Below are positions 25,616-36,394 of a stretch of 64,000 nucleotides of DNA, in pieces. Source of the DNA: Chitinophagales bacterium (lineage in GTDB: Bacteria; Bacteroidota; Bacteroidia; Chitinophagales; LD1); NCBI GenBank assembly GCA_046329555.1, contig JAXLUK010000002.1, forward strand, positions 128,983 to 192,982. The letters are read 5' to 3'. The notes under the pieces were generated by a model. The model did not search any database. It was given only the letters and a program-made list of their open reading frames with translations, and was not told where the DNA came from. The first letter of the stretch is position 1. Each line of letters begins with the position of its first letter. Position numbers and translations under genes: made by a program.

Positions 25616-26668
25616 TTAATAGACCTTAAAGCCCGAAAATTGTGTAAAGTTATTGGCGCCACTCAAGGTTAAGCTGGTATTGGTACGATTATCTACCCAA
25701 ACCGTTACCACGTCCCCGGCAGCTAATTTAAGGTTGACGCTATGACCCAAAGAAACAAATGATCCGCTGGTAATGGATGGTATCGTTTCATAAATTCCGC
25801 CTTTGACAGTAGTACCGTTTTTCTGAAAGTAAATAGAAACATAACCGGTTAAATAGCCAGAATTGCTGAGCACCACTTCGTTGGCATCAAAGTGATAAAC
25901 ACCGGCAGAGGGAGCGGTAAACTGACCAGTAGTCGTATTATAGGCATTGCCGTCGTTATAGTCAGTATTGGCGTAAATACGTTGTAAGGTACCTGTAGCA
26001 CCGGTAATTCCTGTTCCACCAGATCCATACGAACTAAAGCCAACTCCTGATCCTACGGAACCGGTTGGGCCTGTAGCGCCCGTAGCTCCTGCACTTCCTG
26101 TAGGACCCGTTGGTCCAGTAGGCCCGTTACCACTTCCTGTTGGGCCTGTTGGGCCTGTGGCCCCAACGCTTCCGGTTGGACCTGTTGGGCCGTTACCACT
26201 TCCTGTTGGGCCAGTTACCCCTGTAGCTCCTGTTGGTCCGGTAGCTCCGGTAGCACCACCTGCTGATGATGCAGCAAACAATGCATAAGGCACGGAATTC
26301 AGCGGGGAAGTACCCATGTCAATAAAATTAGTACCTCCGGCAGGGTCAATTTCCACTTTCAGGAAGCGCGAGCCCCCTGCCCAATTGATACTGCTAAAGG
26401 CATTTGCTCCAACCTGAGTGCCTGTACCAATGGCATGCGTAAACAACCCAAATGCATTAGTAGATAGACCGGTTTTAACTTCCTGATACAAAGTACTTCC
26501 ACCAGCAATCTGATCAGAGATGGTGTAGCGGGCGCTAATTGACTGGTTGGCTAAAGCTGCACCGGTATTATTCCTTGCGATAGCCTGATAGTTGATAGAC
26601 TGCGGCACTTGAGCCCATGCGGATACGGCGAAAAACCATACCAGCGTAATAGATAAAATGTTTTTCAT
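25616..26668 (-). CDS. Secreted collagen-like (GPT repeat) protein with C-terminal C1q/TNF-like globular domain
   Basis: It has a signal peptide and ~70 aa of G-X-Y triplets dominated by GPT/GAT. The C-terminal ~125 aa carry C1q-domain hallmarks: [32 protein letters not shown] and a terminal FSGFKVY. Confidence 0.72.
26050..26254 (-). repeat. Collagen-like G-X-Y triplet-repeat coding tract
   Basis: The tract reads [71 protein letters not shown]. The DNA contains internally duplicated blocks (GTTACCACTTCCTGTTGGGCC occurs twice). Confidence 0.8.
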
Positions 26669-26708
26669 GGATATGTTTTAGTGATGCGAAAATAAACTTT
26701 CCACAAAA

Positions 26709-28943
26709 CTACTCCATACATTCTTTCACAGCCATCACTACATGACTCTTGCCTTGTTGGGTGACCCGCAAAAAGTAAATCCCGGTTGCACCGGTAAATG
26801 GAATCTGAACATGATTAACGCCTTCTTTGCAAAAAATTGACCATTGATTAACTAATGCACCGTTTTGATTTAAACACGCAATATCCGCTGTGCCTTCTGC
26901 TGCTGTAAACTCTAAAACAGCATTTACTGAAACAGGATTGGGATATAATCTAATCGTTTGCTTGTCGCTCGTTTCATTAATCCCGTTAGCGATTGCCTGC
27001 GCCATTAAAACAGCGCCATAACCATTAACTTTACCATGGCCCCAATCATTGTTTCCAGTTGCCGGCAAAGCCGTAGTAAATGAATCCTGAATGGCTGTGG
27101 TGGCCAGAATTTGCTTGATCTGCGTTGGCGTTAAATTGGGTTTAATCTGCAGCAATAGAGCAACAATACCGGCAGTAGCAGGCGATGCCATAGAGGTACC
27201 TGACAAGACGGCGTAATAGCGTTTTCTTGAAAAAGCAGAATCATAGAATGAATACACATTGGAACTAAAATCACCGCCACTGGGTAAAAAGTTTCCGTCG
27301 TAAGAATTCACTGCAGAAGCCACACCCATTCCGGGTGCAGTGATTTCAGGCTTAACCCGACCATCTACCGTAGGTCCGCGGCTGGAAAACGGAACCAGAT
27401 CATGTAAGCGGGCATAGCTGCCGTAACTCACTGTTTGACTACTAATATTTCTGAAAGAAATTTTTGATGCATAAGCACCAACCGTAATGGCAGAAATGGT
27501 GGTGCCAATATCACTCACCGTATAATCTGTATTTCCTTCTGTTGCCCATGCCTTTCCATAAGCAGTAAATGAACCAATATAGTTGGTGGCATTGCTCACA
27601 TAACCCTGAAAAACCTGCACCTGATTATCGGTGCTGGTTACAGAAAGCAATACAGAATCAGGGGTGCGATTTTCAATACCCAGATAAAAACGTGCTTTGC
27701 CATTAAATGCTGCGGTCTGCGAGGTAAATTGCACAAAGCAGGTATCTCCGTTACTTCCAACAAGCGCATACTGCGCTAATTGATTACTGGTACACACCAA
27801 TGGCGTATGTTGCTGTACACCGTTCTTGTATAAAGAAACAACTACACAGGCTGATTTTGAAGGTGTGGCCCAGATATCGATCCAGGTTCGAGGCTTGGCA
27901 TTATATGGATTCACTACAACAAAGGAATGTAATGCAGTATCTGTGGATGTAAAACTCTTCATCAGGTGATTCCTGGTATCGCCGGTATTACCAGCAGCGC
28001 AAACAAAAATTTTACCAGGGCCCGTTAACGCATCGCATGCCTGACCAAAAAGTGATGAGCCGTCGTGCGGGCCAACCCCACTACCCCAACTAAGATTAAT
28101 GACGCATGGCTTACCAACTGATTGCGCATAACGATAGATATAATTCATACCATCTACCATATCACTCATGCCAGTATTTTGCCATTGCAGGCTATCAGTT
28201 AGAATGCCTACCAATACGATTTCGCTTTCGAATGCCATACCCCGAAAACGACCATTAGCGGCGCCAGGCGCGCGGCCGCTTCCGGCAGCAATTCCAGCTA
28301 CATGCGAGCCGTGTGAATTGTTGATATTGTCGGAATGTGCAGCAAACAATGCGCTGCTATCGGTAATTTCTGTTCCATATGAAAATCCGGATGGCGGTGT
28401 GCCGGGCGTTTTTTCTAACCACGCCCGCTTAATTCGATAGGTTGTACCCGTGGTATCGAAAAATGAAGGATGTGAAAAGTCGAAACCAATATCTACAATA
28501 CCTACCACCACATCTTTTCCGGTATAAGGCATGGGCAGATTAATACCTGCCTGGACGGAATCAACCCGCGTTGCCACCCGCACAGAATCCAAATATCGGC
28601 CAATAGGCTGATCAAATTCTATATATTGAATACCCGGCAACTGCGTAAAAGCAAATACCTGCTTCAATGGAATTTGAACCGTATACACCGAACCTGCACG
28701 CGTACCAATGTGCACACCTAATTGGCGTAGGGGCGTTTCATCAAAATGCGCCTGCACTTTAATGAATGCGCTAATACAAATTCCTGTCGAAGTTTGTTTG
28801 TAAACAAAATCAGGAAGAATGGGTGGCTGGTCGGCTCCGGCAGTGATTGCCAAATAACGTTGCGCATGAATATCTAAGGCTGCCTGTTGAGCACTCAATA
28901 TCTCGGTCAGGCATAAAAGAAAAAGAAGTAACCGGTATTTCAT
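26709..28943 (-). CDS. S8-family (subtilisin-like) serine peptidase with T9SS type A C-terminal domain
   Basis: The catalytic triad contexts are present: VGIVDIG (Asp), HGSHVAGIAAG (His) and GTSMASPATAG (Ser). The C-terminus (IRLYPNPVS...GIYFLRVT) is CTD-like. Confidence 0.9.
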   Translation of the reverse strand: MKYRLLLFLLCLTEILSAQQAALDIHAQRYLAITAGADQPPILPDFVYKQTSTGICISAFIKVQAHFDETPLRQLGVHIGTRAGSVYTVQIPLKQVFAFTQLPGIQYIEFDQPIGRYLDSVRVATRVDSVQAGINLPMPYTGKDVVVGIVDIGFDFSHPSFFDTTGTTYRIKRAWLEKTPGTPPSGFSYGTEITDSSALFAAHSDNINNSHGSHVAGIAAGSGRAPGAANGRFRGMAFESEIVLVGILTDSLQWQNTGMSDMVDGMNYIYRYAQSVGKPCVINLSWGSGVGPHDGSSLFGQACDALTGPGKIFVCAAGNTGDTRNHLMKSFTSTDTALHSFVVVNPYNAKPRTWIDIWATPSKSACVVVSLYKNGVQQHTPLVCTSNQLAQYALVGSNGDTCFVQFTSQTAAFNGKARFYLGIENRTPDSVLLSVTSTDNQVQVFQGYVSNATNYIGSFTAYGKAWATEGNTDYTVSDIGTTISAITVGAYASKISFRNISSQTVSYGSYARLHDLVPFSSRGPTVDGRVKPEITAPGMGVASAVNSYDGNFLPSGGDFSSNVYSFYDSAFSRKRYYAVLSGTSMASPATAGIVALLLQIKPNLTPTQIKQILATTAIQDSFTTALPATGNNDWGHGKVNGYGAVLMAQAIANGINETSDKQTIRLYPNPVSVNAVLEFTAAEGTADIACLNQNGALVNQWSIFCKEGVNHVQIPFTGATGIYFLRVTQQGKSHVVMAVKECME

Positions 28944-35728: not shown

Positions 35729-35734
35729 TCGTTT

Positions 35735-36394
35735 TTAAATCGCCAGCAATTGCTGGCTGCTATAACGTACGTTCCCCGAAATCTGTTGCATGCCCTGCTG
35801 TAATTTTTCAGCATCACCGGCTTCAACTGATGTGCGCGTTACCCGCTCACTGATGCGACACAACCCCTCAACCGCACCGGCATACGTCTGCAGCCGGTGC
35901 AGATACTGCACCTCAGAGAATATCCGAAATCTACGAAAAAAATCCGGGGCTGCTGTCAACATTCCGGAAGCCAAAAAGTAACCCTGTACAATTTCCTCGT
36001 CAACTTGCTGAATATGAGCGTAAAAATCGCCGGCCAGACTGGGGTCAGCCTTTAACAACTCCACATCCAGGGCTAATTCCACGCCTATATGCGCCAAAAA
36101 AGACAATCGGTACTTTTCTCGGGAAACCCCTAGCGCCAGCCAATTTTCAAGCAATTGCCGAACCAGTTGATGAAACGCCGGATGCTGATGAAAATACTGA
36201 TCGGCGTGGTAATGCCGCAATACCCCTTCCTGAATATGCGACTGAACTTCCGGGTATGCATTTCCCTGGCGGTGCCGTAAGTTATGGTTGTAATGCCGCG
36301 TAAAACCGGGCATCAAATCGGGCATCATCGCCCCTAAAGAAAAATAGGGTTGTTGCCGGTGGCGGTCAATCACGTAATGCGACAGGAAATGCAT
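35735..36394 (-). CDS. Hypothetical protein, possibly acyl carrier protein phosphodiesterase (AcpH)-like
   Basis: The trimmed start MHFLSHYV..., together with the HYHADQYFH and HIGVELALD motifs, weakly recalls AcpH (MNFLAHLHL...). The longer ORF to 36523 would overlap tyrS. Its stop is 6 nt upstream of the PorV-like gene start. Confidence 0.4.
   Translation of the reverse strand: MHFLSHYVIDRHRQQPYFSLGAMMPDLMPGFTRHYNHNLRHRQGNAYPEVQSHIQEGVLRHYHADQYFHQHPAFHQLVRQLLENWLALGVSREKYRLSFLAHIGVELALDVELLKADPSLAGDFYAHIQQVDEEIVQGYFLASGMLTAAPDFFRRFRIFSEVQYLHRLQTYAGAVEGLCRISERVTRTSVEAGDAEKLQQGMQQISGNVRYSSQQLLAI

Follow-up and report, generated by a model that had tools for sequence, protein, structure and literature searches.

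In the T9SS (type IX secretion system), the sortase PorU and PorZ keep their C-terminal domains (CTDs) and bind PorV and PorQ (PMC10202324). PorV was present in all of the 30 experimentally studied T9SS strains of the T9GPred survey (PMC10515386), and the gene order porU and then porV has been reported for Porphyromonas gingivalis and Cytophaga hutchinsonii (PMC8564354). The present analysis dealt with a 64,000-nucleotide (nt) stretch from a Chitinophagales bacterium (GenBank assembly GCA_046329555.1, contig JAXLUK010000002.1, positions 128,983 to 192,982, forward strand), referred to here as the window, in which a string of six minus-strand genes contains an outer-membrane barrel gene, porV2, followed directly by the gene of a giant C25-family cysteine peptidase, porU2. 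The reading that we prefer, with a rough probability of 0.6, is that the conserved unit at this locus is the two-gene cassette porV2-porU2, that it encodes a second barrel-anchored complex for the processing or attachment of T9SS cargo, and that the other four genes lie outside this system.

The peptidase was assigned with profile models. PorU2 scored 681.9 bits against NF052324 (PorU_rel_Nterm, “putative type IX secretion system sortase PorU2”), whose cut-off is 450, and its residues 6–908 were aligned with profile positions 3–879 of 879. It remained under the cut-off of the canonical PorU model NF033707 (162.5 bits vs. 420), of which positions 8–788 of 1095 were matched and none beyond. The catalytic dyad corresponds to His657 (codon 32636–32638) and Cys687 (codon 32546–32548), and these two residues, together with Gln20 located just past the signal peptide, were invariant when 26 diverse homologues of PorU2 were aligned. 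When the profile of this alignment was searched against the PDB, PorU of P. gingivalis (6ZA2) was matched with an expectation value (E) of 2.4e-9 and the gingipains with 7.8e-7 (gingipain R). His657 and Cys687 were aligned with the “AGHGG” and “TATC” motifs of the crystallised PorU 6ZA2, and gingipain R was aligned too. The predicted C25 His/Cys dyad of PorU2 is intact.

The C-terminal part of the protein consists of an extension specific to PorU2 and a PorU-type CTD. In the AlphaFold model of residues 905–1735 (pLDDT 73, pTM 0.46), a single alpha/beta domain (approximately residues 1055–1255) was placed within the chain of beta-sandwiches that forms the extension. A Foldseek search with this model returned generic strings of immunoglobulin (Ig)-like and macroglobulin domains and PorU 6ZA2, and nothing more. 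Sub-threshold Pfam matches in the extension of the 26 family members were to ILEI (11/26), CARDB (9/26) and FlgD_ig (24/26). The last 120 residues or so were the most conserved stretch of the family (NYPNPF...GVYFYRV...GFGKLVILR in the alignment of 26 homologues), and a phmmer comparison aligned residues 1594–1703 with residues 1038–1145 of the 6ZA2 C-terminal domain (E 4.7e-5). The single PorU2 sequence matched 6ZA2 over the PorU C-terminal domain alone.

The barrel was assigned in the same way. PorV2, whose signal peptide ends in VLAQ and is followed by AEV, scored 400 bits against NF052325 (PorVQ2, “putative type IX sorting system protein PorV2”; cut-off 325), with residues 9–362 aligned to profile positions 6–353 of 354, and was under the cut-off of the canonical PorV model NF033710 (31.4 bits vs. 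250). The broad PorV_fam subfamily model gave 89.4 bits, marginally below its cut-off of 90. Two other identities were considered and rejected, PorQ (NF033711, 58.5 bits vs. 220) and BamG (NF053685, 16.9 bits vs. 250). In the AlphaFold model (pLDDT 75.7, pTM 0.73), PorV2 is predicted to adopt a PorV/FadL-type outer-membrane beta-barrel fold. The top Foldseek matches of this model were chain F of 8GL6 and chain F of 6H3I (template-modelling score 0.62–0.67, E 1.6e-12 and 1.1e-10), and the next were the FadL-family barrels FadL, TbuX and TodX. According to their entry titles, 8GL6 and 6H3I are structures of the Flavobacterium johnsoniae SprA translocon, and their chain F is taken by us to be PorV.

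Relatives of PorU2 were sought in one genome per species and confirmed by tblastn, which gave at least 588 candidates, of which the best 80 were examined. These 80 spanned essentially all of the 1735 residues, so that species-representative genomes contain 80 or more full-length relatives, about 1650–1790 residues long. They came mainly from Chitinophagaceae, Saprospiraceae and metagenome-assembled genomes (MAGs) of uncultured “Flavobacteriales” or “Bacteroidia”, and the cultured sources included Terrimonas ginsenosidimutans, Taibaiella koreensis and Pseudoflavitalea sp. All open reading frames (ORFs) of the fetched loci were searched with the window proteins, and a locus was considered to have room when at least 1.3 kb upstream or at least 3 kb downstream of PorU2 was available. 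PorV2 was found directly upstream of PorU2, in the same orientation, in 68 of the 80 loci, that is, in 63 of the 71 with upstream room, and the barrel preceded the peptidase in every one of the 68 loci carrying both genes. A reciprocal look-up starting from PorV2 homologues led again to neighbouring C25 genes, of 1704–1714 residues. Additionally, one Saprospiraceae MAG (L013:24-2591) carried two PorV2 genes in tandem upstream of PorU2 (E 5e-78 and 3e-94). Typical PorV2-PorU2 pairs were also seen on contigs labelled Verrucomicrobia and Candidatus Competibacteraceae (L003 and L080), which are probably mis-binned Bacteroidota.

The junction between the two genes was conserved as well. In the window, the TAA of PorV2 abuts the ATG of PorU2 (aaggagTAAATGaat), as read directly from the sequence. 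Among the 57 evaluable loci, the distance from the PorV2 stop to the PorU2 start had a median of 5 nt and was 10 nt or less in 35, eleven 4-nt overlaps included. Close co-directional packing is ordinary in bacteria; what goes beyond chance is that the V2-to-U2 junction is kept from genome to genome.

Furthermore, the position of the pair on the chromosome was recurrent. A divergent tyrS gene was located upstream of PorV2, or of the 219-residue gene that precedes it in the window, at 27 loci across the Chitinophagales, including Chitinophagaceae (L001, L008, L016, L020 and others); therefore, the site of porV2-porU2 is old and stable. The genes around the pair are housekeeping genes (tyrS, fabF, der, ftsK, lolA1, polA and accC), and its GC content is that of the flanks. 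From these features the locus reads as vertically inherited and core-like, not as an island.

The designation of the two genes as porV2-porU2 is right, and it is already contained in the curated NCBI models and in RefSeq names: orthologues from Taibaiella, Pseudoflavitalea and Pseudobacter are called “putative ... PorU2” and “putative ... PorV2” in RefSeq/UniProt. In the annotation of the MAG to which the window belongs, the two proteins are still labelled “C25 family cysteine peptidase” and “hypothetical protein”. A first-pass annotation, made from the letters of the window and its ORF translations, had described the pair as a non-canonical, PorU2/PorV2-like module whose barrel-first order is opposite to that of the model organisms and whose barrel stop codon abuts the peptidase ATG, and all of this was borne out by the scores and gene orders given above. 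Since the pair does not score as canonical PorU/PorV, the idea of a paralogue stands unrefuted, though also unproven. The statement of the first-pass annotation that the function of such a module had not been worked out experimentally also agreed with the literature, in which no experimental paper on the PorU2/PorV2 pair was found; the apparent T9SS matches were “PorU” or “PorV” carrying a superscript reference number. For PorU/PorV paralogues and PorU-like or PorV-like proteins, the literature yielded only BamG and general reviews, and T9GPred and the other published surveys contained no per-genome PorU data for Chitinophagales.

The preferred reading starts from what was observed of porV2-porU2, namely the families to which the proteins belong, the catalytic residues, the barrel fold, and the order and conservation of the genes, and it counts two genes, not six, because PorV2 adjacency is conserved and nothing downstream is. 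The cassette is read as a widespread paralogue family, passed on vertically, of the PorV shuttle and the PorU sortase. PorU2 would be exported by the Sec route, as the signal peptide and the invariant Gln20 suggest, and would then pass through the T9SS by means of its C-terminal domain of the PorU type. With PorU-PorV, PorZ-PorQ and the type B cargo-PorP pairs as the analogy, this domain would be retained and would dock on its cognate 14-stranded PorV2 at the cell surface. Once docked, the C25 dyad would, on the same analogy, cut some of the T9SS cargo and might also act on it as a transpeptidase, while the beta-sandwich chain of approximately 700 residues, which is not in canonical PorU, is a candidate spacer or a candidate arm for binding the substrate or the acceptor.

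Several points weigh against this proposal. The docking, the retention of the C-terminal domain and the action of PorU2 on T9SS cargo as a sortase or peptidase are what we infer from analogy, and calling the complex a “second” one is an assumption taken from the NCBIfam naming. The model of the C-terminal half of PorU2 matched no specific functional fold in Foldseek, and its C-terminal domain was below the cut-off for type A CTDs (TIGR04183, 22.2 bits vs. 23). In 8 of the 71 loci with upstream room, mostly from Saprospiraceae and Flavobacteriales MAGs, PorU2 had no adjacent PorV2 and lay beside unrelated genes, so that coupling at the gene level is not obligatory. Finally, the downstream gaps of 8, 33 and 40 nt still allow co-transcription in the window organism, in which the lipoprotein, S8 protease and C1q genes may be co-transcribed.

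A different interpretation is that PorU2 does not process T9SS cargo but is itself one, in the form of a very large protease or adhesin of the cell surface that serves nutrient acquisition or cell-surface interactions, and that PorV2 is its private anchor barrel, similar to PorP/SprF. The pairing does resemble that of type B cargo with PorP (PMC9143113), one such pair being encoded in the window at 7398–15871, a long chain of Ig-like domains is typical of surface proteins, and gingipain R also matched the catalytic domain of PorU2. Nevertheless, the entire N-terminal 900 residues, beyond the C25 core and including the PorU-type N-terminal motif, are collinear with the PorU model, PorU outscored the gingipains when the profile was run against the PDB, and a dyad without variation, together with a core-like, vertical mode of inheritance at a single syntenic site, would fit a housekeeping role. 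We regard a cargo role of PorU2 as unlikely.

The preferred reading can also be extended, in a form that we consider distinctly doubtful. PorV2-PorU2 might be a self-contained second attachment complex in which the chain of approximately 700 residues takes over the acceptor-delivery role that PorZ/PorQ have for canonical PorU; the Chitinophagales and their relatives could then place a separate part of their T9SS cargo on another surface glycolipid, or release it selectively. Alternatively, the pair might act as the sole sortase system in lineages where canonical PorU/PorV are absent.

Table 1. Features of the six-gene string and its borders in the window (aa, amino acid residues).
Feature	Position (nt)	Strand	Basis
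His-rich AcpH-like (acyl carrier protein phosphodiesterase family) protein, 219 aa	35735-36394	-	ACP_PD family scan
PorV2, 373 aa, outer-membrane beta-barrel, PorV/PorQ (FadL-like) superfamily	34607-35728	-	NCBIfam NF052325, model, gene order
PorU2, 1735 aa, secreted C25-family cysteine peptidase, giant PorU paralogue family	29399-34606	-	NF052324
Peptidase_C25 catalytic domain of PorU2, aa 408-789	32240-33385	-	Pfam PF01364, 1e-53
PorU2-specific C-terminal extension, aa 909-1616: beta-sandwich chain	29759-31882	-	AlphaFold model, Foldseek
PorU-type C-terminal domain of PorU2, aa 1617-1735	29402-29758	-	phmmer to 6ZA2; conserved columns
Predicted lipoprotein, 137 aa	28977-29390	-	lipobox ...FIMAC; no family above cut-off
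Subtilisin-like S8 protease, 744 aa	26709-28943	-	Peptidase_S8 1e-43
Collagen-repeat/C1q-domain secreted protein, 350 aa	25616-26668	-	C1q 37 bits (cut-off 23.7); signal peptide
Bidirectional intrinsic-terminator-like hairpin	~25558-25601	.	direct reading: AAAAAGAAAA-GGCTGCAAG-ttgatg-CTTGCGGCC-TTTTCTTTTT
Divergent intergenic region, 64 nt, 219-aa gene / tyrS	36395-36458	.	direct reading; tyrS ATG 36459 (+)

The first-pass annotation had gone further than the pair and proposed a six-gene dedicated operon, that is, a sortase module co-transcribed with its own substrates or partners (the lipoprotein, the S8 protease and the collagen/C1q protein). Its description of the string was accurate. The ORF listing of the window gave the same six co-directional genes (Table 1), separated by 6, 0, 8, 33 and 40 nt as computed from the coordinates, with a terminator-like hairpin after the last gene, and its domain calls (C25, S8 with a CTD, C1q with GxT repeats and the lipobox) were reproduced. 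This packing, the single strong terminator, the type A CTD of the S8 protease (residues 666–735, nt 26739–26948; TIGR04183, 27.4 bits vs. a cut-off of 23) and the closest relative (L081, 78% identity), which retains the lipoprotein and S8-CTD genes and has another CTD protein further downstream, all speak for such an operon. However, homologues of the lipoprotein, S8 and C1q genes followed PorU2 in none of the 64 loci with downstream room. Where identity had fallen to about 50%, convergent glycosyltransferase-like and YfhO genes or other unrelated genes came after PorU2. No gene family was conserved downstream of PorU2 in these 64 loci, where the largest family, found in 11, was a housekeeping one.

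The individual neighbours pointed in the same direction. A 140-residue counterpart of the lipoprotein was found solely in the relative with 78% identity (on L081 and on its contig L082), in which the lipoprotein and S8 genes are 196 nt apart and a 768-residue CarboxypepD_reg/DUF7619 CTD protein occupies the place of the C1q gene. The C1q gene was present in the window alone among all loci examined, and neither its product nor the lipoprotein gave a match to a T9SS CTD in the Pfam and NCBIfam scans. The first gene of the string, for its part, would encode a cytoplasmic AcpH-like protein. The proposal of a six-gene unit with its own substrates or partners was not supported by these comparisons, in which the six-gene order was not conserved and the 219-residue gene was found in 11 of 87 loci, and we consider a dedicated six-gene operon very improbable. 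The lipoprotein, S8-CTD and C1q genes read as recent, lineage-specific neighbours, not as conserved partners, and the S8 protease is, by its domains, ordinary T9SS cargo encoded in a lineage-specific position. The C1q protein has collagen-like GxT repeats. Its N-terminal 80 residues or so showed a weak similarity to the fibre N-domain of the Bdellovibrio “mosaic adhesive trimer” (NF053851, 42 bits; cut-off 60), which suggests a trimeric, fibre-like surface protein. The Logan run SRR26348422 (L082, L088) contained both the window organism, with a 100% identical PorV2, and the 78%-identical relative; therefore, two related Chitinophagales populations co-occur in one sample.

That PorV2/PorU2 is the only or principal shuttle/sortase pair of the lineage, in replacement of canonical PorV/PorU, is highly unlikely. 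In its favour, no canonical PorU/PorV was detected in the 64-kb window or in any of the 88 fetched loci, the pair has a core-like character and shares synteny with tyrS, and type A CTD cargo, for which a sortase is required, is clearly in use in this genome. Against it, the window is about 1–2% of a genome, so that absence there says nothing, the “2” in the names chosen by the NCBI curators implies, as far as a name can, co-occurrence with PorU/PorV, and PorV occurred throughout the experimentally studied strains surveyed by T9GPred.

For the first ORF of the string, mechanical extension reaches a GTG at 36523; the start was placed at the ATG at 36394, which gives 219 residues, because this length matches that of the orthologues (218–221 residues). 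The encoded protein has no signal peptide and begins with MHFLSHY. On its own it scored 23 bits against ACP_PD (cut-off 27), and Zn-phospholipase C was also sub-threshold, while 18 of the 25 sampled family members matched ACP_PD, the best with E 3.6e-9. The residues H6, D26, H61, D65, H69 and H102 are invariant in the family, for which an exhaustive search found about 684 representatives of uniform length. A word-indexed homology search gave only a fragment of the protein itself, and sequence and profile searches of the PDB gave nothing credible. By an iterative profile search, the 11 loci that carry the gene all belonged to the clade of the window, and in all of them it abutted PorV2. The product is best read as a cytoplasmic, clade-specific AcpH-like enzyme, not as a secretion component, and is probably a housekeeping protein.

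At the upstream border, the tyrS gene (36459–37733, plus strand; TIGR00234, 387 bits) is divergent, and fabF is 2 kb from the 219-residue gene. The intergenic region between the 219-residue gene and tyrS is the sole candidate promoter region for the string; a sigma-70 promoter scan, which does not model Bacteroidota promoters, gave hits no commoner than in shuffled sequence (23 vs. 25.8). At the other border, the hairpin lies between the convergent C1q gene and a plus-strand gene at 24809–25543, and has a 9-bp GC-rich stem (GGCTGCAAG / CTTGCGGCC) between an A-run and a T-run. A simple terminator scanner reported only its plus-strand half. It is a plausible bidirectional intrinsic terminator, as had been proposed from the first reading.

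Other genes related to the T9SS were observed in the window. A gene at 7398–8900 (minus strand) encodes a PorP/SprF barrel (PorP_SprF 203 bits) that continues into an OmpA-like peptidoglycan-binding domain at the C terminus (OmpA 85 bits), a fusion that combines in one polypeptide what the PorP-PorE complex does in P. gingivalis (PMC9143113). It lies immediately downstream of the gene of a 2315-residue protein with a type B CTD (8924–15871, minus strand; TIGR04131, 58 bits). Type A CTDs were detected in a protein of 1862 residues (273–5861, plus strand; 42.8 bits) and in a beta-lactamase/penicillin-binding protein-like protein (20605–21906, plus strand; 34 bits), and a sub-threshold CTD (24.5 vs. 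27) in a protein of 525 residues (44447–46024, minus strand). Apart from these, a member of the geranylgeranylglyceryl/heptaprenylglyceryl phosphate synthase family is encoded in this bacterial genome at 5904–6677 (minus strand; TIGR01768 153 bits, TIGR01769 172 bits with a cut-off of 162).

The outcome corrects the unit that should be studied, which is a module of two genes, and the S8 protease and the C1q protein should not be presumed to be its substrates. The question on which PorU2/PorV2 bear is what directs T9SS cargo either to release or to attachment at the surface and how the different classes of cargo are handled, and the family is a potentially informative piece of the T9SS. As a strongly conserved PorU/PorV-like pair, it is an obvious genetic target in cultured Chitinophagaceae (Taibaiella, Terrimonas, Pseudoflavitalea).

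Compared with the NCBIfam families NF052324 and NF052325, both labelled “putative”, the window pair was above both equivalog cut-offs and did not differ at the family level. The canonical PorU-PorV pairs used for comparison were P. gingivalis PG0026/PG0027 and C. hutchinsonii CHU_3237/CHU_3238, together with the structures 6ZA2, 6H3I and 8GL6. Canonical PorU removes the CTDs of cargo and transfers the cargo to anionic lipopolysaccharide (A-LPS). Like canonical PorU, PorU2 has a signal peptide, an N-terminal region and a C-terminal domain that are both of the PorU type, and a C25 domain whose dyad aligns, and its partner is, as in the canonical pair, a barrel predicted to have a PorV/FadL-like fold and encoded by the adjacent gene. 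Unlike the canonical pair, the order is reversed, the barrel coming first, and the scores against the canonical models are low (162 vs. 420 and 31 vs. 250). PorU2 is longer than canonical PorU by about 550–600 residues and has the extra beta-sandwich chain, and the identity of the PorV2 model to canonical PorV was only about 13–14%.

The arrangement is also similar to PorZ-PorQ and to type B CTD cargo with PorP/SprF, in which a large T9SS-exported protein is encoded beside a barrel of the PorV/PorP superfamily thought to hold its retained CTD. PorV2 is nevertheless below the PorQ cut-off (58.5 vs. 220) and PorU2 has a peptidase domain in place of the beta-propellers of PorZ, while the CTD of PorU2 is PorU/type A-like, unlike that of type B cargo. 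With the gingipains RgpB and Kgp, PorU2 shares the C25 catalytic fold and the dyad; however, the gingipains are without the PorU-type N-terminal region and are cleaved cargo anchored to A-LPS, not barrel-docked machinery, and PorU2 is better fitted by the PorU models.

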